A stretch of DNA of 64,000 bases from Pseudogymnoascus verrucosus (Eukaryota): NCBI GenBank assembly GCA_001662655.1, contig KV460260.1. One strand, 5' to 3'. The translations under genes and the position numbers were made by a program. Of the stretch, positions 278-64,000 are shown piece after piece. The notes beneath the pieces were generated by a model. That model saw nothing but the letters and a program-made list of their open reading frames with translations, ran no database searches and was not told the DNA's origin. Numbering within the stretch: the stretch's first letter is position 1; the number at the start of each line of letters is the position of its first letter.

Positions 278-1192
278 ATGCCCACCACCCTCGAAGCCAA
301 AATCGTCGTCCTCGGCGCCCAAGGCGTCGGCAAAACCTCCCTCGTCCATCGCTACATCCACAGCACCTTCCTCCCTCCCCACCCCTCCACAATCGGTGCA
401 TCCTTCTTGACGAAACGAATCCACGACACCGATTCCAACACCCTTGTGCGGCTGCAACTCTGGGATACTGCTGGACAGGAGCGGTTCAGGTCGATCTCGC
501 GACTGTATTATAGAGGAGCGAACGCGTGTATAATCTGCTACTCCATCACCGACGCAGCCAGCTTCGAGGAAATGGGCCGGTGGCTAGCGGAGCTACGGCG
601 GGAGTTGGGAGAGGGCGTTGTGCTACACGTCGTCGGCACCAAAGCGGATATTGTGGCGAGGGAGCCGGGGAAGAGGGAGGTCCCATTTGAGAGGTGTATT
701 GCGTATGTGGCGGAGAATCTGTATCCGGCGCTCAGCTCGACGCCGCCCTTGACTGCTACGGCGGATGGGGCGGGGTTTGGGGGGAGGTCGAGAGCGACGA
801 GTGGTGGGACGGGGGAGCTGAGGAGTCCGGGCGCTACGAGCAAACGGAGTAGTGGGTTCTGGGGACAGGATGTTGGGTGGGATTGTTGTCATGAGATCTC
901 TGCTGAGAGCGGCGAAGGCGTCGATGAAGTCTTTCGAGTCGTTACGCGGAAATTGGTGGAACAAGCCAGGAAACGGGAGGAGGAAGGTGAAGGGGCTGCG
1001 GGGGCAGAGGAAGGGGGGGAATATTTTGGAGGGGAGGCGGGGAGGGGGAGTTTTAGGGTCGGGAGGGATAGGAGGAGTTGGTTGGGGTTTCCGACGGGGA
1101 TTGGGATGGAGGATGTTATTGAGGAAGGTGGGGGCCCGATTGGGGGGGCGGGGGTGGGGGGGAAGAAGGGGAAGGGGAGGAAGTGTTGTTAG
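278..1192 (+). CDS. Rab-family small GTPase (Rab5/Rab24-like, atypical G4 box)
   Basis: Intronless 304 aa ORF: P-loop GAQGVGKT, switch [17 protein letters not shown]4 variant GTKAD, G5 EISA, C-terminal KCC prenylation motif. Confidence 0.9.
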   Translation: MPTTLEAKIVVLGAQGVGKTSLVHRYIHSTFLPPHPSTIGASFLTKRIHDTDSNTLVRLQLWDTAGQERFRSISRLYYRGANACIICYSITDAASFEEMGRWLAELRRELGEGVVLHVVGTKADIVAREPGKREVPFERCIAYVAENLYPALSSTPPLTATADGAGFGGRSRATSGGTGELRSPGATSKRSSGFWGQDVGWDCCHEISAESGEGVDEVFRVVTRKLVEQARKREEEGEGAAGAEEGGEYFGGEAGRGSFRVGRDRRSWLGFPTGIGMEDVIEEGGGPIGGAGVGGKKGKGRKCC

Positions 1193-3097
1193 GTTTTTGG
1201 GGTTTGTGTTAGGAGGGGAGAGTTTGTTGTGATAGGGGGCTGATGGGATGGGTTGGATTTGTTTGGTTTGGTTTGGGCGGAAAGGATTCTTGGGTAGATG
1301 GATGGGATGGCTGCATTGGGCATTTGGGGCGGGTTGGGGGAGGGGGCGTTATATCTGGGTTTTGGCGTTGGATGTTCTGGAATCATTACGCGTGAGTGCG
1401 TTTCACACGATATTGTTTTTTGTGGTGTTTGGTTGTGAATACATGGTGCTGGCGATGGTGATATGTGTATGATACCCCTTTCCATCCGAGGATCCCAGTC
1501 AGCATCCATACACCCGGAACCTGCTTTCAGAGAAGCTGAGCCTCGATAGCTGGATTATCTCCAAACCCAAGAATGGATACCCGAAGCAATACAGAAGAAG
1601 ATGAGATGGATGCTGAGAACCATAAAATCTTTAACAGCCGGTCCCCCGCTTACACAAGTTATAAGGAGGCACAGGGAAGGACCAGAATGTTTGTGGCAGG
1701 TATGGAGATTCGAGAACTTCAGCCTAACGAAATGTGGATGGGTGGAGGCGGGGATGAAACTCTTACTTTTTTGTTGTTAAGGTCAGAGTAACCCTTTTGA
1801 CCAGAACGGAGGCGGATACCGACCTGGAGGTGGGAAGATCCATTCCCAGTGCTTTAGATGTGCAGAATTCTGGGCTGAAAGGACCGTGTTGTTGCTACCG
1901 CCACCTCTTCTTGTGGCCATAAGGCATTTCTTGTCGAGAACTCTCTCTTCTCACCTACTTCTGTCGTCGTTGCCCTCCACCCCCGCCGTTGCCATCTACT
2001 CCCCAGGGATGATGAGCGTCTCAGGCTGCTATAGCATAAATCTTTGTCGCGTACCCCGCGAGCAAGGGTAATTTTCATTTTTGTATGGTATCTTTTCCAT
2101 GCCAACGTCAACTGGCTCGTTGGAGGGTGCAATGTATGGGATGTGCGGTGGCTATTTATTCTTGTATGACAGGGGTGGGTAGGCGTATGAGATGGGGAGA
2201 AGTGGAGTTGACTTAACTTCAATTCCGAACATGCCTCCAAAGCCTGCTAGAGAAAATGATAGGGAGAAAGGAAAGCTAGACCATCCCTTTACTTACGAGT
2301 CCAGTCAGTGTAAATCTATCACAACCACCCCCATCCTTCCGACTAGCCAGGAGATCCCGAACCCCCTCAGCAAAATAAGTGCAGCTTTTATCAATAACTC
2401 GTGCGAGTCCTTGACTTACTTTGCCCCCAGGAGCAAAGAAAATATTTGAACATTTGATACCGTTGGCTGTATCGAGAAGCTCAAGAATGATCAACTTACA
2501 AAGCTTAGGAATGATCAACTTACACTCGTGGGCCTCCTACGTGAATTGGAGGGGGTGTGCGATTCTTGTCGTCTTTAGGCTTTATCTTGCTGTTGCTGCC
2601 CTGTTCTTCTCACTGTGAGGCTTTTCTAGTCGGGAATTGCTGCCATCGCGCTGTTCTGCTGTTGTTGACACACGCCCTCTCGCCTCCATCTACCCAGCCA
2701 TAGATCACCATGGCGTAATGCGGTTGTGATACACGAAGCCGTCAGACGGCGCGGAACCTCCAGTCGTTTGTTGGATTCTTTTCACAAAAGAGCTGTGGTT
2801 GAGGGTATAATATAAGGAGGACAAGAGTGCCGGTTTTATAGTTGTTTCCATCAGTCTTAAAAAACGGGCTAACCAAGCTTTCAGCGCGAATCGATACCTT
2901 GCTTTGGAAAGTAGAATTAGTGAAGAAGGAATCAGGAGATAAGTAGCCAAAGAAGTCATAGCATAGCAACTAACTATCTCTCATCTATTTTTTTGTTATC
3001 CCGTTTCCATTCCCGCACACGCCCCCTCACCTTCGATCAAAACGCTAAATAATCAAACCGACCCATTCCCCCCTTTCCATCCCTCCACCCTTTTTCC

Positions 3098-5511
3098 TCA
3101 AAGAGCCGAGTACGAGTACGCATTCCCCAAATTGTGTTCCTATCACGCACAGTTAGCCAATGTCCATACCAAAATCCTCCACCCCTCCAGGCAAGAAGAC
3201 GGAGAGCAAAGCAAAAAGACAAACCTTAATATAATCCCCCCCTTTCTCCAACCACTCCCCCCTCGTAACCCTCCCCCTCTTCCACTCCGCCCCCCCCTCT
3301 TTCCCCACCCACCCCCCAGCCCCCCTCCACGCATCCCCTACGGCATCCTTCGCCCTCCTCACCTTCACCTGTCTCTCAACCGGCAACACAGCCCTCAACT
3401 CCCTCGCCAACCTCTCCTCAAAGCCCTGAAACAGCGTTGCTCCCCCCGTCATGAATACATCCCGCATATCCACCTGCCCGCCGAGACGCTGCATCAGGAT
3501 ATCCGCTGCGATCTCCACGATGCCTGCTTGGTCCAGCCCGGCGATCGAGGGCTGGAATACTACCTCCGGGACGCGGAGCCTCTCAACGTTGAGGTGGAGC
3601 TGGTGTCCTTCCTTCGCTGAGCCGGCGTCGAAGGCGCGTGGCCCGCGCAGGAAGGCGTGGATGAGGGAAGTCGACCAATCGCTCTGCGCATCATGGGTAT
3701 GCAGTTCCGTGAAATCGGGATCGTGCTCCAGCAACTCCGCTTCGAGGGCCTTGAGACTAGCACCCAGATCCTCCTCCTCGTCCTCGGAGTTATCCCCGTC
3801 GTTGGCGACTTGGCGGTAGATTCCCCAATCGTCGTCGTCCGCGCCGAAGGTATCGTCGTCGCCTCCTCTACGGCGCTTTTTGGCGGGCGTGTCGGAGGCG
3901 AGTGCGGCGATGGATTTCATCCTAATTTGACTGGCAAGGGATTTGCGATTCCCCAGATCAGCCTTGAGGCGCTCACGCTCTTTGAGTTTCTTGACGAGCG
4001 CAGCGCGCGCGGCGCGTCGCTCCTCTAACCACCCCTCCAAATCGCCCTCGCGGCGCTCCTGGTCGAGACGCGCGATTTCAGCTACGCGAGCGGCTTCAGC
4101 GGCTTTTTCGGCCTTGGCCCGGGCGCGGGCTTCGTGGTTGGATTTCATGAGGCGTTGGTGGCGTTTCTGCTTGATTCCGGCGTCATCGAGGTCCTCGTCG
4201 GGGATTTCGAGGAGGTCGTAATTCGGGGGTTCGGCGTCATCTTCGATTTCAGGGCCACCGACATCTTTTTGCCGGGATTTGCGAATCGAGAGGTCGAGCT
4301 CCTTGATTGTCTTCGCGAGTGCATTTTCGTCCTTCAGGTCCTCGGCGTCGAGGAGGCGTTTACTCTCCTTCTTGTTCTCGGACGCCAGACGCGTCTGGAG
4401 GGACCGGTAGTAGTCGAGTTCCTGCTCCTTGCGGACCAGTTTCTCGAGACGCATCTTGGCGGCCTGCTCCTGTAGGCGGCGGCCGGACTCTTTCCGCTTC
4501 TCGGCGGCGCGCGCGAGCTCCTCTTCGGATTTCTGGATGATTACTTCTTCGGTGTACGGGTATTGGATGACCACGTCGCGGTCCTCGAGACCCGTCCAGT
4601 CGAGCACCTCGCCGACTTCCTTCATATAGTCTTGCGCCACGAAGCAGTGATCGCGAACCATGTGCTCCGCCTGCGAAGAGTTCAGCTTCCCCGTGAATCC
4701 TGGGTACTTCAGCCGGATCAGCTTAAGCAGGTACTCTGCGCTCTGAGACCCTCCCCAGTTCAGGCGCGTAGCCTGGGCGGGCTGAGCGCGCGAGTCGACC
4801 ACGGGAATCAGGTGCGTGGAGCTGTGGGAGGAGGAGACGACGAGACCCGTCTTTCCGCCATTGTGAGCATACGAGAAAAGCGCGTCAACGCCGTAGGCGA
4901 CGGAAGGGGCGCCGTAGCACTCGAAGAGAATCTCGTTCATGGATTTGCGCGAGTACGGTAGGTTGGCGAGGGTCTCGGTCATGACTATGGGCATGTCGAT
5001 TGCGCCGTTTTGGCCGTCGATGCCGAGCTTGAGGAAGAGGTAGTCGAGGACGTACTCCATCACGTCCCAGTTGCAGACGACGCCGCTACCGGCTTCGAAG
5101 GCGTTACGCATGTGCCCGCGTGCGGTGGTGTCGGCGTAGACGTCGGAGCCGGCGAAGGCGAAGGTCTTGCCTAGCTTCCGGTCTCGATACTTTGCCATCA
5201 CGGGTGGGATGGAGAACCGGGGGTTGTCCTCAAATGACCATCCTGCGCGGACTGCCGATGAACCTGGACGTGTGTTGTCAGTAGGGAGACATGGTGTGAG
5301 GATTGTAGGCTGCTGCTGCGATCTTACCATTGTCAATAACGATCGCGACGTTGTCGCTCCCAATCTGCCGTGCTTTCTTGTATCCGTCTGGCTGTGGCGC
5401 CTGGTAGCCATCGAAATGTGCTTCCTTGACGGGATATATCTTTGCAGGTCCAGCTTCTGGCCGTCCCGTCGATACCTCTGGGGCATTCGGAGATATGGCT
5501 GAGGGCGCCAT
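3098..5511 (-). CDS. ARP5: Actin-related protein 5, INO80 complex subunit
   Basis: Exons 5511-5328, 5263-3225, 3139-3098 with GT-AG introns. Gives MAPSAI...AIVIDNG|SSAVRAGW (actin-fold start), a large charged insertion, LNVERLRVPEVVFQP and a YIKEHNLGN end typical of Arp5. Confidence 0.93.
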
Positions 5512-30234: not shown

Positions 30235-33180
30235 TCCCCTCTTTTTTTGATCATGGCATCCCTAGCATCGATACCCCCCCCCCCCCCCCCTTTTTCAACC
30301 TCTGCAGTACTGCCGAAAGCATCTCATAAGTATAAGAAAGGCCCGAGACATATGACCAGCTCACCATCGGAGAAATATTCATTCGTGGACACATGGTGGG
30401 GCTGTCGTGTTGCTGCCGTGACTTGATATCTGCTATTTCTGCACCCACCGCGCTGTGGAGGGGATGCTGAGCTGGATGCTGGGGTGGGGTTCTCGTCACC
30501 GCATCACCCTGTCATTAGTTGTTTCTCGTTGGTGGGGGCTGCTGTCGTTCCTGCGTTCTCGTCGGGGGTTAGCTGCTGTCACCTCAACACCCTGGCTCCA
30601 TCAGACAGACAGCGGGACGTGTTTTGGTACATCTNNNNNNNNNNNNNNNNNNNNNNNNNNNNNNNNNNNNNNNNNNNNNNNNNNNNNNNNNGGGGGGAGG
30701 GGGGGGCCGGAGAGGGGAGGGGGGGTTGGGTCTTGTTGTTGTTGGGGGGAGTGAGAGTTAGGGGTGTGGGATGGGTGTATCAGTCAATTCTCATACCCCT
30801 TTCCCGTCGACTGCCAAAATCCTTGCTTCAACTGCGCGCATCCATTCCCACTCCCCACCGAACCCCTTTCCCAGCCTCTTCGCGCTGCAAAATATATCTC
30901 GTAAAGTATAAAAAGGCTACTAGCATCCCACCAGCCCATCATCATACAAAATCACCATCAACCAAGCATATTGCTACCCCATTGCGTTATCGTGTTGTTC
31001 ACACAACAGCTGGTAGCTGCTATTGACACGCAGTATGGAAAAAAGTATGCAAAGGGCCATCTTGTGTGCCTCTTTCTGTTTATATACCCGTTAGGGCACG
31101 TAAGAAGTAGCTGGAACCTGGAAGTTGAGGGTTCTTGTTACTGCTTTATCCCTTTGCTGGTTATTTCTCACCGGCAGAGGTCGGGTTTGCTGTCGTTAAT
31201 GTGTTCTTGTCGGGGAGTTGGGTGCTGTCACCTGTAATTTTCTTGCTGTCAGGGGCCAGGACTGGAGGGGAGCTTCAACAAGGTGCGTGTGGTACTAATT
31301 ACCAGAGTGGCCATTTCAGGAGAAAGTACGGACACCAGCATCTTGAGGTGCAGGGGTTTAGACCGTTAAGTCTTGTCAGATTAGTTCATGACTAGAGCTA
31401 GTTAAATATCGGATGAGTCCATCCGACATTTCTCATACCCCTTTCTCATCGCCCGCCGAGATTTCTGCTTCAGCCGCGCGCGCATCCATTCCCACCCGCT
31501 ACCAACCCCTATTTCCAGCCTCTTCGGCACCGCTGAACACATCTGAGAAAAAGTATAAAAAGGTCCTCCACATCTCACCAGCTCACCATCGCGAAAAGAA
31601 CCATTGAGCCAAGCACACTCCTCCTGCACCATTGCCTTATCGTCATTACATACTACTTTCTATTTATATACCCGCCGAGCTGTGGAGGGCAGCTGGAGCT
31701 GGAGGAAGGGTGAGTTTTCGTCACCACCTCATTATCTCGTCGTGTATTTCTCACTAGCTAGTGTTCTGCTCTTGTTCCTGTGTTCTCGTCGGGGGTTGGT
31801 TCCTGTCACCTCTAATTTTTCTGCTGTCAGGGGCCAGGGGGGCCCAAAGCTTAGTGGTGTGCATGTAGTACCGGGTGGTCGTTTTGAGGAAGGTTCCAGA
31901 GAGCAGATCTCTGTATCATGGCACTGTCTAAGATTGGCTTTGGGACTTGCGGATATGTGAACGTGGATCTGAGTTTTGAGGGTTGAGTTGTGAGGGACTG
32001 GATGCGGATGGGTGGGGGGGAAGGGAGGGATTGGGTCTTTGAGGGTTGGTCCGTTCAGGGGTTTGGTGAGTATGTGTGATGAGTGCATCAGTGGATTTTC
32101 ATTCTCATTTCTTGTATGTGGCAAAATCCTCGGTTTCGACGACGCATCCATTTCCACCAACGCAACTCCCGCTTCCATCACCAATCACCCTTCCCAGCCT
32201 CTTCGGTATTGTTGAATATGTGTCATATAATATGGAAAGGCTGGTTCCATCTCACTAGCTCACTTTCACACAAATATCACTATAAGACGTTTCTATGTTG
32301 CTGCGCCGTCGCGTTATCATCATCTGCATACTACTTTCTATTTTCACCATGACGTGCCTCCAGCCATCCGTACAAGCCCTTATGATACTGTGAACGGCAC
32401 TTTTGCTTTGCTTGAGACAATCATGGATAATAATTCTGATGATGGCCTCCGTGGGTTGTTTGAGTCTATTATTGCTGTACTGTAGAGGGTGGCTGGAGGC
32501 AGGGTGAGTTCTCGTTATGGTCTCTTTCAGTGAGCTCTCGTCATGGTCTCTTTCTCACTACCTATTTCTTGCTGCCACTACGGGGTTCTCGTCAGGGGGT
32601 TGCTGTCACCGTCTGATTTTGCTGATGTCAGGGGAGTGGGGCAGGGGGACCAAGATTCTGGAAGATGCGAGTGTGGACATAGACTGGTAAGTGCTGGTTT
32701 CGTTGAGGGGTACGGACAGCAGCATTTTGAGATTGAAGACTTTCGCGAATCGTGAATCTTGTCAGATGGGTTTGTCTCAGGGGCTTGTTATATACATGGG
32801 ATGCACCCGAATTCTCATACCCCTTTCTCATTCCTGTCTGAATCCTCACTCATTTCAACCGGCTGCATCCATTCCCAGCACCACCAACTCCTCTTCCTAC
32901 TCTCTTTGGAACGTCTCAACACACCCCATACGATATATAATACCATGTCCTCACCCACCAGTGCGCGACGGACTATGGTTGCCACACATATCAGTTCGCT
33001 ACCATGCCGTTAGTTTTTCTTGCGCATCGCTTTGTATTTCTGTACCCACCGAGTTAAGAGGGGGCCAGCTGGAGGATAGATGGATTCTTGTTATATGGAC
33101 TTATTCTTACTACTTGCTTCATTCTTGCTGGCGCGGGGTTTTGCTGTCGCCGCGGGGTTCTTGTCAAGGGGTGCTGGCTG
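30235..33180. repeat. Decayed tandem array of about five ~0.55-0.7 kb units
   Basis: Colinear shared words in successive units: TTCTCATACCCCTTTC (~30788, 31430, 32812), CCAGCCTCTTCG (~30870, 31516, 32194), AAAGTATAAAAAGG (~30903, 31550), GTTCTYGTCR-G-run (~30555, 31203, 31782, 32585, 33157). Confidence 0.8.
30635..30691. other. Assembly gap (N run)
   Basis: Run of n characters, followed by a G-rich tract. Confidence 0.99.
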
Positions 33181-53984: not shown

Positions 53985-55005
53985 TGGGGTCTATCTTATT
54001 TTAACCAAGTTTCGCACGCGGATACCTTATGAGTAAGTAATAAAGAAGTGTGGATGATTGGGGGCGAGTATTATTTATTAGCGTAGTTATTTCAATGTTG
54101 GATATCTAATTCGAAAACACATACATCATACCTATTCGCTTCCCAAAAATCAGTACTGATACTACTAAACTTGACAACTGCTACTGGTGCACTGACTTGC
54201 GACTAATCCCATCATCGAGTTTGGCGCTCGATTATATTTAGGTGGATATCCAACAAGGCTTGCGCGCTGGCATGTACTGGCCGCATATAACGTGACCACC
54301 AACAACCATCCATCGACTCACAAAGTGAGAATCTACCTGGCCGCAATGTTGGAGATGGCCATGGGGAAGACCTCACCGCTACATCGGTGTAGATATCTCT
54401 TTGGACGTCATTTGAAATTAGGTCCTGGTTTGTGAGTAGAGATGCAATAGCTTTGATGAAGCGTATCCAGGACAGCAGGAGTTTTTACATTTACACCACT
54501 TTAAGCGCACCGATTCCAAGGTTCCCACTACCACGACTCCTTGACGCCCCTCCAGCCCCCACTACCCACCTGCCATCCCGTCCCCATGGTTTGTAACCCT
54601 GTTTCGAAAATGCGTCCTCGTGCAGCCTTGCATACTCGCAGAACCTGCATCGAGGGCATGATGCCTTCATAGGCCGTGCATGCTATGATGATGGTATACC
54701 AGGCAGCTGCATTGCATTGCAGATGGGAGTCACCTATTACCAGCCTCATAGTGGCGCGGAGGAGCGCGGGTGGTTCGTAGAGATGCAGCCGTTCTGACGC
54801 GCTTTGGCGCGCCGGAGGGTGTTTAAACGGGGATGGGGAATGCTTATAACTCCGTCTGGTGCTCGTCTCGGAGGAAGGGTGTTTGTAGGAGGTCCAAGTC
54901 GTCGTTATTTTCTCTGTGCTTTTTTTACTTTTTGATTTTCATTTCGTTGATTCACGCTCAAGACACATGCTTCTGGTCAATACGTTGAAAGAACGGACGT
55001 CAAGC

Positions 55006-55911
55006 ATGGCGGCGGGAGAAAAGTGTCGGGCGAGAGGCTGCCCGACTGATGTATGTGCAAACAGTACGTTTTGCAATATGCGTAAGTCCACCAGTGCTGA
55101 TATCACTCTCTCACTCTGCTTGTACCTGAGGATTTCCTCGACTGGAACCAAGACCTACCTTGATGTTAATAAAATTACATAGATACGTGCTCCTATCCGT
55201 TAGCATGCAACAACCCGACAGCTTGGCCAAGGCTATTTTGTATAATCCGTAAGTGTTCCCTATCTCAGGAGCTAGAAAATGATAGCTTGCTGACTGGCAT
55301 TTTTTCAGATACATGTCGGGTTCATACAGAAAAGGAAGGCTGCGGTGCACCTATTAGAACGCCGGAGATGACAAGTTGTAAGGACCGTAAGTTTCCATGG
55401 GCCATTGATTGGGCTGTACTAAACCTGACGGTTATGTCCTCAACACAGATCAGTGCACTGTTCCCTTCACGAATGGAGGAACCTGCCCTGTCCAAATTTG
55501 GACTTTTGGGTATACCCGTTGTTATGGCCGTAAGTCCCCAATGTCAGAAACTATGAGTTACATTAACTACGTCGATTGCTGACAATGTGGCGCCTGTAGA
55601 TTCATGTACCGTAGCTGGCTGTAGGAATATCAGATCAATTGAATCAATGTTTTGCGATGGACGTAAGTATTTCAGTTCTTTTCGGGTTAAATTTTACCTA
55701 ACATAACTGGAATTGGATGTGAAGTACCAGCTAACGTTGTTATCACTTGTCATAGATACGTGCAGGACTAGTGGGTGTTTTGAACAAACGGTTGGGGAAG
55801 AAGATAAGTGTGGCAAACGTAGGTATTCCATGGCACCACTTGAGCTTTTATGGTTACTAATTACTGTATACCAAACCAGACCACAGTGAGAGCTGCTGTG
55901 TAGTTATGTAA
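55006..55911 (+). CDS. Six-repeat C-C-C-H (zinc-finger-like) protein with C-terminal CaaX box, ~152 aa (not in ORF track)
   Basis: Exons 55006-55081, 55183-55248, 55309-55386, 55449-55529, 55600-55662, 55756-55818, 55880-55911. Donors GTAAGT x5 and GTAGGT; all introns phase 1 inside a His codon; frame stays open to CCVVM*. An alternative in-frame ATG lies at 54967. Confidence 0.85.
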
Positions 55912-56961
55912 GCTGTCGAAATGGCACGTAGCGGAAGAGTAAGTTATCATAGAATCAAACCACCACCTTCTTTTTACTTTGCTAACCGGTGTTAAATAGA
56001 TGCCATATCCGCATTCTAACGATGATGGGGACCCAACCGATTTCACAGGCAATTATAGCCAGAAAGTTGGAAAAATCGCAAGGGAACCCCACACATGGGT
56101 ATTGAAAAAGGAGCAAGGAGACCACACAAATGAAATGGCATAGAAAAGGAGTCTCGTGGTTTGCTGGCACTTGTTAAGTGGATGCATAAGTTCCACGAAC
56201 TAAATTCTGTGTTGAAAGTGCCGAATTATGATACCGATGATATTTGCAACAAGTTTTCAAAGGAGTGGATAGTCAGGAAGGTATAAGTTTATGTCTGGGG
56301 TTAGAATGGTGGTGTTTTTAAGAACCTTCATGTCTATTTGTATTGTTACGATGGAAATTTTTGTTCTCGGCCTTGTTAAATAAATTGTAACTATTTGTTA
56401 CAATTAATAATTCGAAATAAAATAGATCTACTTATTGTCTGATTCAAGGATCAAAGATGAGTATAATTTCACAGTAATGTTTGAGAATTATTATATAGCC
56501 GAATCTTTATTATATTTATGGCTTAAATTCTGAGAAGGCAGCCTAATGGGATAAACTCTGTGGTTGGACACATAAATCGTGGTTCCTTTGAAGCGTCGGC
56601 CACCAGCAGTGATTCCAACTCAAATATGAGTATGAGAGGAACCGTGAGTTGGGAAACCTACCCCAGTGGGGTCTATTCTGCGGCCGCCTGTGCTGCCTGA
56701 TATGCACATCCCTCCTCCAAGTGTTCAAAGGAGGCATCTAATCACCCAGTGTTGTAATCAACAAGCCAGCGACTCAAAAATAGAGATAAAGAGAAGAGTC
56801 CTATCATCTTAAATAGTTGATATAGATTCTCGGCAAAGACAACCCCTCTTTCGGACTTTTGGGCGGCGCGAGTATTTGTTAGTTGTTATAAGCGCCAATA
56901 GTGTTGGTAGCGACGAAAAGGAACTCGAAAGGAACTCAACAAATATCACACCATCAGAAAC

Positions 56962-57500
56962 ATGAGCAATAAACGCCGAGTATTTGTCTCAATTCATTAT
57001 CGTGGCGTCCTTTCGCTCGGAGAAAACAGACAGCGACTGGGTTACGCCGCATACCATTGGGGGATTCTCATCTCACCAAAAGTCTACAAGGAACCTGATT
57101 GCTACTCATTCGATGTCAGTGATGCAGCCAGGCCAGATCCAGAAACCAGGATTGATCTTAATCCAAACCATGAATGATTTTTCGGAGCAACCCTACCATT
57201 AGTGGCAGCTTACTCGGCTTGATTATGATTGGAAAGATTCCGAATGGGGTTGAGATATCAGAAATTCGAACACGCCTTCAGTCGATCCCAGTCCCTCAAA
57301 AAAATGTCATGCCGGAGCAGAACTGTGTTACGTGGGTAATGTCTGCTATTAAGACTCTACAGAAAAATGGATTTGCTGAACTGTTTGAGATAAATAAGTT
57401 CATGGACGCTGGAATCGAGTTTGCTGATGAAACTTTGGCGGATAAAAGTGGCACTCCCGCAACGGTTGCAAAAATGGACTATACAGGTCGAAAGATGTGA
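56962..57500 (+). pseudogene. Frameshifted gene for a small fungal protein with YHWGI...NCVTWV motifs
   Basis: ORF 56962-57177 and ORF 57174-57500 join if one G is restored (GAA TG[G] ATT TTT CGG = E W I F R). Could also be a sequencing error. Confidence 0.65.
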
Positions 57501-57704: not shown

Positions 57705-57875
57705 TTAGCAAGGGCTAGGGTCATAACCGCAGGTCCCATCAGTGCAGTCCCAGCACAGCTTCTCACCTTCCCAGCAGATGCCGCAGTTGTCCTGGCGTTT
57801 CTCTGCCTCAGCTTGAATGGCGGGTGCCGCAAAGGCAACGGCGAGGAGGGCGGCAAAGACGAGAGTGAGCTTCAT
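57705..57875 (-). CDS. Small secreted cysteine-rich peptide precursor (56 aa)
   Basis: MKLTLVFAALLAVAFA signal peptide, pro-region ending EAEKR, mature QDNCGICWEGEKLCWDCTDGTCGYDPSPC with 6 Cys; minus-strand TATATAAA at 57970-57963. Confidence 0.85.
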   Translation of the reverse strand: MKLTLVFAALLAVAFAAPAIQAEAEKRQDNCGICWEGEKLCWDCTDGTCGYDPSPC

Positions 57876-60010: not shown

Positions 60011-61365
60011 CTATAACCTTGCTTTCTCTGCCCCCTCCGCCTCCATCCTCCCCACCCACTTCCCTACAACCCCTACTAACCTCTCCACCTCCTCGAAACT
60101 ATTCCCCGCATGCAAACAAACTCTTACCCTCTCTCCTCCTACCGGAACAGTTGGCGCCACAATAGCGCGCACCATAAACCCTGCCGCCTGGCACTCCCTC
60201 GCCAAGTCGCGCGGTCGCGGCGTGAGCAATGAGAAAATAGGGGATTCAGGACAGAGGTGTGGGATGCGCAGAAGGGGGTGCGATGGCGATAGTGAGAGGG
60301 CAAGGAGGCGTGTGTGAAGGTGCGATACTAACGCCCACATATGTGCCGCAGGCTGGCTAGGTGTAAGTAAGGGAGGAAAAAAGCAGGGGGAGCAACATAC
60401 AGTGACAGTTCCACCATCTATCATGAGATCATAAACGGTGCGGATAGCTACGAGTGAAGGGTAGGACATGAAAGTCGTGTAGATGAGCGGGCGCGCATAG
60501 TTAATCAGATACTCCCGCGTCAGCGGCGAGCAGAGCATAATCGCTTCACACCATCATCAGCTCAGCGAACACCAGTCAACCAGTGGGGCATGAGCATACC
60601 TCCATTACACGCCAGCGCCTTCCCGAACGTATGCAGGCGCGCAAATACCCGCCGTTCGAGGCCAAGACTACACACCACCCCGCGCCCGTTCTCGCCATAT
60701 AGGCCAGTCGAATGCGCCTCATCCACGATGATCTTGCCATTTCCCAAGGGCAACAGCTTCTCTACAGCTTCCACAATTGCAGCAAGCGGCGCTAGGTCAC
60801 CATCCATACTATACAGACTCTCCACCGCGATGAAAACGCTCCGTTTTCCCGTCCTTACGAGCGCATCTCCCGCCAGGACCCCCTCAAGCACGTGCTTCAG
60901 ATCCTCAACGTCGTTGTGCCGGAAGGACAGGCGGGCTCCAGCACGTGAGAGACGCATCCCTTCGTGCACGCTGGCGTGAATGGCAGCGTCATAGACGACT
61001 ACGTCGCCCGGCTGGGGCACACATGCGAAGAAGCCCGCATTGGCATCGAAGCCGGCGTTGAAGAGGCATCCGGCCTCGGCGCCGTGGAAGGAGGCGATAT
61101 CGGACTCGAGGGTCTCCGCGTACGCGCTGTTCCCGTCGAGGAGGCGGGAACCGCCGCTACCAAGGCGTTGGGGTGAGGAGTTGAGGTGGGCAAGGAAGGA
61201 GGCATGGAGACTTGGTAAGGATGACAGGGAGAGGAAGTCGTTGGAGGAGAAGTCGGTGGAGGTGGGAGGGGAGAGGGTGAGGGCACGAAGGGAAGATTTG
61301 GCGGCGCGCTTGGAAAGGTTGAGGCGCATGGAAGTTGCGAGGGCGTCAGCTGGGGGGTCGGCCAT
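60011..61365 (-). CDS. bioF: 8-amino-7-oxononanoate (KAPA) synthase with PTS1
   Basis: Introns 60544-60599 and 60353-60400. DFSSNDFL, GSGGSRLLDGN, HASVHEG, YSMDGD, DEAH, TFGKA; ends ARL. Confidence 0.93.
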
Positions 61366-61810
61366 GATGATTTAGGGGGAGGGACGGCGGACTTAGAGGG
61401 GAGAGAGGGAGGGGACGGGCTTCGGATGGATATGAGTAGCTATATGGATGTCGTTAGGTCTGGACCGCGGAGTGGGGAGTGGATAGAGGCCCATATTTTA
61501 TATTTTAGACATCGTGGAGCGCCGTTCGTAGCCGAGCATTAGCCCTGTGAACCGACTTTAACGATAATAATGTGGATAATACGGGAACTAGGGGTGGGTA
61601 TAAGCATGTGTATGTAAGATATAAATCGCTGACTACAACAACAAAAAAAGCGTTGGGGTTGAGTAAAATACGACCATCTCAACCAAAGCCAAAGTTATAT
61701 TGCCCTGTAAAATATCTCGGCGGTTGATGGTTGGCGAGATCCCGACCCCTACGATTTGTTGTTCCTAGTAGCCGATCACAGGCGGCGACCACCGAACACC
61801 AACTAGCAGC

Positions 61811-64000
61811 ATGCCCGCCTCTGGAATCACGGGATCTGTTCTGCGCCGCTCACTGCGCGCATATCAGATCTATGGCGCGAATACCGGCGTGGGAAAGACG
61901 GTCATGTCGACCATCTTGTGCGGCGCGCTACATCACGCTTTCCCCCAGGAACCCGTCTGGTACCTGAAGCCAGTGTCGACGGGCCCGCTCGACGACGCCG
62001 ATGACGGACACCTCGCGCGGTTCTCGCCGAGCACGAAGACAAAGACATTATTTCAGTTTGGAGAGCCCGTGAGCCCGCATATTGCCGCGAGGGGCGCTAC
62101 TGTGAGATGCCGAGATGAAGAATTTATGAGTCAGTCAATATCAAAGTTGCTAATCACTTTCTAGCCGCTCTCTGATTCGTCAATTCGAGAAAAGATCCAG
62201 GCGCACGTGACATCGTGTTCTCAGGATGGAAAGGGGACGCTGCTTGTCGAGACAGCTGGCGGGGTGCATTCTCCTACGCCGTCTGGGAGCTCACAGGCGG
62301 ATCTATACAGGCCTCTGCGCCTGCCCGTCTTGTTAGTAGGTGACCACCGCCTTGGAGGCATCTCGTCATCCATATCGGCCTTCGAGTCCCTCCATATCAG
62401 GGGCTACGACCTCAACTCCGTTCTACTATTCGAGGATGAGCAATATCAGAATCATGAGTATCTTCGCGACTACTTCGGCGAGCGCGGCATCTCCGTGCTC
62501 TCGCTCCCCCCACCCCCGCCACAGGAGAGCAGCAAAGAGACCGATCAGGCGCGTATGGCAGACTACTACCTAGAAATGAGCGAGCGCAAATCCGTCATAG
62601 ACATGGCAACCTCCCTCTCCACCTCTCACACCTCCCGCCTCGACAGGCTCGACTCAATGGCCGACAAAGCCCACAAACACATCTGGTACCCTTTCACACA
62701 GCACCGCGGCATCACCCCTGACAAACTCATGACCGTCGACTCCGCCCACGGCGACTTCTTCCAGACCGTCTCACCACCATCCTCCGAGACCGTCCTGCAA
62801 CCTACCCTCGACGGCTCCGCATCTTGGTGGACCCAGGGCCTAGGACACGGTAACCCCGCTCTTTCCCTCGCCGCTGCCAACGCCGCTGGTCGCTACGGCC
62901 ACGTGATGTTCGCATCAGCGATCCATGAGCCGGCCCTTGCGCTGGCAGAGCTTCTGCTCGAAAACCTACGGAATCCGCGGATGCAGCGGGTGTTCTACTC
63001 CGACAACGGGAGCACGGGCGTCGAGGTAGCGGTTAAGATGGCGTTGACAGCCGCGTCGGTGCGGTATGGGTATGAGGAATCGCAAGAGGTGGGTGTGATT
63101 GGGCTGAAGGGCAGTTACCACGGAGACACGATTGGAGCGATGGATTGCTCCGAGCCGTCGACGTATAATGAGCGTGTGCATTGGTACCGTGGGCGTGGTC
63201 ACTGGTTTGATTTCCCGCAGGTTAAGATGAAGGAGGGGGAGTGGGTGGTTGAGCCGCCTGAGGGGGGCGAGGGAGAGTTTGGGCCGGCAATGAGGTTTAA
63301 GTCGCTGGATGAGGTGTTTGATATGGAGGCTCGAGATGAGTCGCTTGCTGCGGAGACGTATAAGAAGCACATCCTCGAAACACTGGACAGGCTCGTACGC
63401 GTGGAAGGAAAGACTTTCGGCGCGCTTGTCATGGAGCCTATCATGCTCGGCGCCGGTGGCATGCTCCTTGTGTAAGTTCTCGTTAGCCCCTCCCTTTTCA
63501 CACACCAACTAATCCTTCCTAGCGACCCCCTCTTCCAACGCACTCTCATAAACACCATCCGGGACTCACACTCCCTATTCTCCGCCTCCCCTGCCCCAAC
63601 CGACCCAAACAACTGGACCGGTCTACCCATCCTCTTCGACGAAGTCTTCACAGGCATCACCCGCCTCGGCCCCTTCAGCCCATCCACCCTCCTTGGCACC
63701 CAACCCGACATCTCGGTGCACGCCAAGCTCTTAACCGGTGGGCTTGTCCCACTCGCCGCCACCGTCGCGAGTGAGTCTATCTACGACGTCTTCCTGGGAG
63801 ATGAGAAACGCGATGCCCTTCTACATGGACACAGTTACACAGCCCATGCGGTTGGGTGTGCAGTTGCCGAGGCATCGGTGAAGGAGTTGTTGCGGATTGA
63901 GAGCGGTGAGGAGTGGGAGGCATTCAGGGCGCCGTGGGGGAAGACGAAGGTGGATAGTGCATCCGGTGGGAAGGACGGGGTGTGGAGTATGTGGTCCCCA
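61811..64000 (+). CDS. bioDA: Bifunctional dethiobiotin synthetase / DAPA aminotransferase (3' end beyond window)
   Basis: Introns 62102-62164 and 63472-63522. GANTGVGKT, LKPVSTG, ETAGGVHSP, IWYPFTQH, SWWTQGLGH, YHGDTIG, FDEVFTG. Confidence 0.94.

Follow-up and report, generated by a model that had tools for sequence, protein, structure and literature searches.

A short six-finger member of an ascomycete CCCH zinc-finger-array family with a predicted lipid-anchor tail

The stretch of DNA analysed here (the window, 64,000 nucleotides) carries a compact seven-exon gene for a putative array of CCCH zinc fingers (Table 1), located in a block of reduced GC content, with a PAP2 phosphatase gene on one side and a broken DUF6914 gene on the other. 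Positions 54000–57500 have a GC content of 40–48%, against 57–58% in the conserved neighbours, and GC3 is 0.43 in the finger gene, 0.70 in the PAP2 gene and 0.47 in an intact-looking hydrolase gene nearby. The hydrolase is present in NCBI with its exact sequence and shares a 90% identity cluster with a protein of Pseudogymnoascus sp. 24MN13. The DUF6914/DUF6540-type gene downstream changes frame near 57175, and its two halves match consecutive parts of PF21858. It is followed on the opposite strand by a 56-residue open reading frame that begins like a signal peptide, has a Lys-Arg site and contains six cysteines in a mature part of 29 residues, a candidate small secreted defensin-like peptide. 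This frame has no meaningful Pfam match and, as called, is not in the protein collection; a related contig contains an in-frame 21-nt insertion at 57802, inside it. Farther downstream lies a divergent pair that, from motifs in the open reading frames, look like biotin genes, one bioF-like (reverse strand) and the other a fused bioD-bioA-like gene (forward strand). The window also includes an assembly gap of 57 N.

Spliced by coordinates, the seven exons give a single frame of 152 amino acids followed by TAA. The six introns are 60–101 nt long and all are in phase 1, each splitting the His codon of a C-x4-9-C-x10-11-C-x2-H unit; the junction codon is C/AT in five cases and C/AC in one, encoding His throughout. 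Coordinates, frame and junction codons agree with the original prediction, which had described seven exons, a His codon cut by every intron and the resulting product. Branch points of the CTRAY type lie 20 to 26 nt before the acceptor in five of the six introns, while intron 1 has weaker branch points near its 3′ end. The five internal exons each have a length that is a multiple of three, and removing any one of them in silico preserves both frame and tail, in line with their predicted symmetry. In the protein, a single residue separates the His of one unit from the first Cys of the next at all five links, and the charge is near zero (14 Lys and Arg, 13 Asp and Glu; pI 7.4). An in-frame ATG at 54967 would lengthen the N-terminus; the start-codon context is better at 55006, and both changes inferred within the extension from a second allele (below) are non-synonymous. 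The extension is probably unconstrained.

Table 1. Features of the finger gene and its surroundings, in window coordinates
Feature	Position	Strand	Description
Finger gene	55006-55911	+	seven exons
Exon 1	55006-55081	+	start codon; finger 1, C-x4-C-x10-C-x2, up to first base of His codon
Exon 2	55183-55248	+	finger 2, C-x5-C-x10-C-x2
Exon 3	55309-55386	+	finger 3, C-x8-C-x11-C-x2; nearest of the compared fingers is finger 2 of the metagenome gene L004
Exon 4	55449-55529	+	finger 4, C-x9-C-x11-C-x2
Exon 5	55600-55662	+	finger 5, C-x4-C-x10-C-x2; top score on family profile, 20.2 bits
Exon 6	55756-55818	+	finger 6, C-x4-C-x10-C-x2
Exon 7	55880-55911	+	last His completed, short tail, stop codon 55909-55911
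Introns 1-6	55082-55182, 55249-55308, 55387-55448, 55530-55599, 55663-55755, 55819-55879	+	GT..AG, phase 1
C-CVVM	55894-55908	+	CaaX box 55897-55908 and neighbouring Cys; candidate farnesylation/palmitoylation sites
Candidate N-terminal extension	54967-55005	+	13 codons, in frame, from upstream ATG
DUF6914/DUF6540-type gene	56962-57500	+	broken
Candidate secreted peptide	57705-57875	-	56-aa open reading frame
Biotin-type gene pair	~60011-63500	-/+	bioF-like (-), fused bioD-bioA-like (+)
Assembly gap	30635-30691		57 N

Within the window, this arrangement stands out from chance. The donor motif Cys-x-x-C/GTRRG occurs seven times on the two strands of the 64-kb window, and six of these are donors of the finger gene; the full exon-architecture pattern matches three times, always in the finger gene, and not once in any of 100 shuffles. 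On this sequence evidence, a real multi-exon gene with one predicted CCCH unit per exon can be regarded as confirmed. From the splice signals, together with an annotated relative described below, we infer the splicing of all six introns.

The last exon ends the protein with CVVM and a stop, a C-a-a-X box in which X is Met. This tail depends on the acceptor at 55879, the first AG past the branch point, and none of the 10 later AGs listed yields a CaaX ending. Elsewhere in the window, a CaaX motif terminates three of 2925 other stop-terminated stretches (about 1 in 1000). CVVM is the box of NRas, and human farnesyltransferase modifies it in yeast (PMC11152559). In Aspergillus RasA, cysteines beside the CAAX box are reported to be palmitoylated and required for stable binding to the plasma membrane (PMC5879109). 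Neurospora CSR-3 likewise terminates in CVVM, which is required for its function, and its authors consider prenylation to matter more for partner interaction than for membrane association (PMC12561907). With the Ras and RasA precedents, a farnesylation-type tail with a palmitoylatable neighbouring Cys, as first proposed for this gene, is credible. By this analogy, lipidation of the protein is likely and membrane tethering somewhat less so.

Evidence on constraint comes from an allele on a 1024-nt JGI contig, represented in protein collections by a read-through open reading frame call (P0001). In the stretches of this call that are off frame, in exons 1 and 4, all five inferred changes are synonymous in the exon frame, where a synonymous share of 0.29–0.36 is expected (P 0.002–0.006); this includes all four changes inferred in exon 1. 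In the in-frame part, 3 of 46 codons are changed in exons 2 and 3, compared with 16 of 73 codons in introns 1–3 (P 0.038); one amino-acid change falls in exon 2. These tests use small counts of changes, back-inferred from one protein sequence, and they give signs of purifying selection on the finger-gene exons. The same allele has a 1-nt deletion in exon 4, in a run of C near 55488, and a second deletion in intron 1; since both shorten homopolymer runs, decay and sequencing error are each possible. Contigs of a public sequencing run (X1) cover the block in the same order, all with introns. A distant contig of this run aligns over 55031–55087, 55181–55334 and 55851–55927, corresponding to parts of exons 1–3 and to exon 7 with its stop. 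It bridges intron 1, where it has no alignment. Over 55334–55851, which holds most of exon 3 and exons 4–6, it is unaligned at 80%, yet it joins across.

These data bear on whether the locus is an accessory gene that can be dispensed with and has begun to decay, what is left of a longer array after truncation, with an unused CaaX ending. The exon 4 frameshift in the second allele points in this direction, as do the broken DUF6914 gene next door, the low GC and GC3 of the block relative to the PAP2 gene, and the missing spliced product in the protein collections searched. However, the seven exons, twelve splice sites, 24 ligands and stop are all intact in the window, the changes in the second allele are biased towards synonymous sites, a CaaX ending would seldom arise by chance, and the intact-looking hydrolase has a GC3 similar to that of the finger gene. 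Decay is thus unlikely, though it deserves consideration.

The spliced product was not found among proteins of 69–223 residues, nor in a profile search of 1.84 billion representatives, and the gene has therefore apparently been missed by annotation. In that search, a profile built from the six window exons matched P0001 alone; this profile carries Arg where the His should be, which limits its power to detect distant members. Searches of proteins by word index gave 1, 1 and 5 candidates. A DNA pattern for the His-split exon architecture was more productive, matching 22 metagenome loci. Sixteen were dropped, 15 with a stop in a matched exon and one (L006) as a short tandem DNA repeat, and the six real loci represent four distinct genes. 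His-split phase-1 introns account for all 11 introns of L004, all five of L021 and the three complete introns of L017. L004 (positions 1106–3101 of its contig) gives a complete model of 12 fingers; one of its exons holds two fingers, and the His codon there is an unsplit CAT. An annotated protein from Coniochaeta (P0005, KAH8907365.1) shares 66% identity with this model and carries His at each of the junctions. Finger 1 of L004 has a loop of 50 residues between its second and third Cys, and the corresponding loop of P0005 has 52 residues and is 72% identical, so that the fold tolerates large conserved insertions. L021 has at least five fingers. In L002 (90–990), two finger exons are clean; there are more His-split donors, but the exons belonging to them are out of frame as read, and L002 is either a decayed copy or a poor contig. 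In a second Coniochaeta protein, from C. ligniaria (P0002, OIW27194.1), finger 11 is missing and the N-terminal half is unlike fingers 1–7 of P0005. Its model seems to be mis-annotated, and the absence of finger 11 may reflect either a lost exon or a mistake in the annotation.

Against a profile built from 25 fingers of the other genes, without those of the window gene, the window protein scores 25.0 bits, a value reached by none of 500 shuffles with Cys and His fixed (maximum 12.8). Its fingers fit the family pattern of tandem C-x4-9-C-x9-50-C-x2-H units joined by one or two residues. By these measures the gene is a member of an unnamed ascomycete family of His-split poly-CCCH genes, and the His-split architecture is a trait of that family rather than unique to the locus. 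Two Ascomycota clusters of the ESM Atlas (491 and 547 residues; scores 0.78 and 0.83, both below 0.9) are leads to the same unnamed family. The gene resembles KAH8907365.1 and OIW27194.1 in the unit, in the H-x1-2-C linkage and in carrying signal beyond the ligands, and L004 in its His-split phase-1 introns. The relatives differ from it in having twelve fingers and a long C-terminal tail lacking a CaaX box, whereas the window gene has six fingers and a nine-residue CaaX tail, and there is no clear finger-by-finger collinearity between them. With six fingers, a mean non-ligand identity of 12% to the fingers of L004 and a different tail, it does not fall within the 12-finger Coniochaeta orthologue group. 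A CaaX ending was not found in any of the four relatives with a readable C-terminus (L004, L021, P0002 and P0005; none orthologous to the window gene), and conservation in these relatives gives the tail no support; L017 and L002, being incomplete, were left out of this comparison. Among the members examined, the CaaX box is not a family trait, and the short CaaX-tailed form is new.

The original prediction also envisaged a modular recognition protein with swappable fingers, diversified by skipping, duplicating or exchanging finger exons. The internal exons are indeed all symmetric and skippable in frame, P0002 is without finger 11, and finger number differs among non-orthologous members, with six in the window gene, 12 in L004 and P0005, and at least five in L021. 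The fingers themselves tell against such turnover. Non-ligand identity among fingers is 16% within the window gene, 12% within L004 and equally low between the two, whereas orthologous finger positions of L004 and P0005 share 65%, which indicates that the duplications are old and that each finger is conserved in place. The highest within-gene values (0.24 in the window gene, 0.26 in L004) reveal no recent duplicates, and L004 and P0005 agree both in how many fingers they have and in how these are ordered. The swappable-cassette claim is not supported by this comparison, and such a diversifying protein is very improbable.

The statement that the gene belongs to no named family was borne out. 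No Pfam family reached its cut-off with the six single window exons, for which such scans are weak because the exons are short, or with full-length P0002 and P0005; NCBIfam and PHROGs, searched with P0005, likewise gave none. The best scores below cut-off were zf-CW on one L021 exon (E 0.0007) and CxC6 (PF18721) on P0002 (E 0.015). P0005 returned nothing in Pfam at E 10, nor in PDB sequences or phage genomes, P0002 had no match in the PDB, and the sole PDB matches of the finger profile had E values of 3.3 and 7.3. Zf_WRKY19, zf-C3Hc3H, zf-TRM13_CCCH, EsV_1_7_cys, CxC6 and the NF-X1 finger produced no gathering-score match with the exons, P0002 or P0005. AlphaFold2 models were unusable (mean pLDDT 31 and 46), and a Foldseek search was without match; Zf_WRKY19 (PF24906), zf-TRM13_CCCH (PF11722) and EsV_1_7_cys (PF19114) are weak structural neighbours of P0002 (TM by query below 0.35). 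An origin from KDZ transposons, suggested by CxC6, was set aside, its sole basis being one sub-threshold match. Of the zf-C3Hc3H fingers, present in KANSL2 and INO80D, those of KANSL2 are spaced much like the window fingers. The double fingers of KANSL2 are reported to make protein contacts, and no DNA binding was seen (PMC10456878).

Two further kinds of finger have a similar ligand pattern. The WRC domain of plant GRFs (PF08879) and HRT-type fingers have the form C-x9-C-x10-C-x2-H, near that of window fingers 3 and 4. WRC binds DNA and mostly occurs once per GRF, whereas the window gene has six tandem units that lack the WRC signature; PF08879 did not match the six window exons, P0002 or P0005. 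WRC is reported to bind one Zn, with a KD of 14.4 nM for WRC7, and to fold only with Zn (10.1101/2025.01.03.631214). The second kind is the N-terminal finger of phage HNH endonucleases (PDB 5h0m is one example), whose C-x4-C-x10-C-x2-H unit is like that of the window gene; it is single-copy and fused to a nuclease, whereas the window gene is a tandem array without one. A single such unit was present in 116 of 119 viral loci, 77 of the 119 being HNH-like, and HNH was confirmed in five of six viral proteins tested. On the fungal profile, phage fingers reach a median of 17.8 bits and shuffles 3.8, a comparison that is circular in part, since Gly and Tyr were already set by the DNA pattern. Conversely, the window protein is not significant on the phage-finger profile, where 71 of 300 shuffles reach its score. 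The window finger thus resembles WRC-type and phage HNH N-terminal CCCH fingers, with homology unproven. That the unit stands alone in viral proteins supports one unit per exon as a folding module. Two points make a Zn register across the intron (C-x2-H-x-C-x4-C, NF-X1-like, as in the automatic Atlas name) less likely: the two outermost ligands at either end would have no partners, and phage proteins carry the unit by itself. The phage HNH finger (L024–L036 and other viral loci) has no Pfam model of its own in the six proteins scanned and weakly matches WRC, CxC6 and EsV_1_7_cys, a hint of a wider unnamed finger superfamily.

Metallothioneins and plant isoprenylated metal-binding proteins offer another point of comparison, and the pairing of metal binding with a CaaX box is known. 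A membrane-bound metal buffer or sensor would accord with this pairing and with the composition of the window protein, in which Cys makes up 13.8% of residues and six metal sites are predicted in 152 residues. The strict spacing of three Cys and one His, with signal beyond the ligands, instead speaks for structural fingers; orthologues retain the long loops specific to each position, and the identified neighbours (PAP2, DUF6914, hydrolase) are not metal-handling genes. We therefore consider a metal buffer decidedly improbable.

Our preferred reading, in which we place moderate confidence, is that the gene, from a fungus resembling Pseudogymnoascus, encodes an adaptor without catalytic activity, an array of zinc fingers that is farnesylated and probably also palmitoylated. 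Within an uncharacterised family of tandem C-x4-9-C-x10-C-x2-H arrays in filamentous fungi, it would be a short form with six fingers, its layout of one His-split intron per finger inherited from an old duplication of a finger-plus-intron unit. Splicing of the six introns would yield a single 152-residue product, in which each unit, by analogy with WRC, would bind one Zn2+ and fold as a small finger. Following the Ras precedent, CVVM would be farnesylated and the adjacent Cys probably palmitoylated. The lipidated array may then reside on the cytosolic face of a membrane, where its fixed, position-specific loops could bind partner proteins; the near-neutral charge favours protein over nucleic-acid partners. 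The tail would be an addition made in this lineage, giving a new target to a kind of protein that has no lipid anchor in the other members examined.

Genes with one repeat per exon and CCCH fingers are both of known kinds, and the locus extends a fungal family of zinc-finger arrays, for which Pfam has no model, by a member with a predicted lipid tail. A literature search aimed at the family, with subscription journals mostly outside its scope, found no description of it. Built of exons of 60–130 nt, such genes are easily overlooked or mis-modelled: the spliced finger-gene product was not found in the protein collections searched though its neighbour is annotated, and the N-terminus of P0002 is apparently mis-modelled. 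The DNA pattern of His-split exons finds members where protein searches fail, so that the family can be surveyed. With 152 residues and a single, switchable predicted anchor, the window protein is a convenient first test case for identifying binding partners of the family.

Among known systems, the combination of fingers and tail is similar in plan to mammalian ZAP-L, the long isoform of ZC3HAV1, which unites CCCH fingers with a farnesylated CaaX box, as predicted for the window protein; this is an analogy of layout rather than a sequence comparison. ZAP fingers differ from the window fingers in spacing and class, and the window protein is without the PARP or WWE domain of ZAP-L. The farnesylated CaaX box of ZAP-L is reported to be needed for activity against some viruses (PMC10747524). 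A membrane-tethered nucleic-acid sensor of this type, with fingers that read RNA or DNA and an anchor that places them where mycoviruses replicate, would draw on the ZAP-L precedent, on the DNA binding reported for WRC fingers of the same ligand pattern (10.1101/2025.01.03.631214), on the single fingers of such spacing at the N-terminus of phage HNH nucleases, and on the fast divergence and patchy database presence of the family. The window protein, however, is not basic, has no effector domain, and scores no better than shuffles on the phage-finger profile, which together with the different ZAP spacing makes a sensor quite unlikely. We give similarly little weight to a broader proposal, of an unrecognised family of annotation-evading, one-finger-per-exon CCCH specificity arrays in filamentous ascomycetes, one of which this lineage has re-targeted to membranes by gaining a CaaX mini-exon. 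The tethered protein would sense non-self proteins or the RNA of viruses, and strains would differ through loss or skipping of finger exons; if true, it would constitute a fungal parallel of ZAP-L.

Ras-type CaaX tails are a further analogy for the lipidated adaptor that we favour. The window protein, which lacks a GTPase domain, is like them in its CVVM box and adjacent Cys, again by analogy rather than by sequence comparison.
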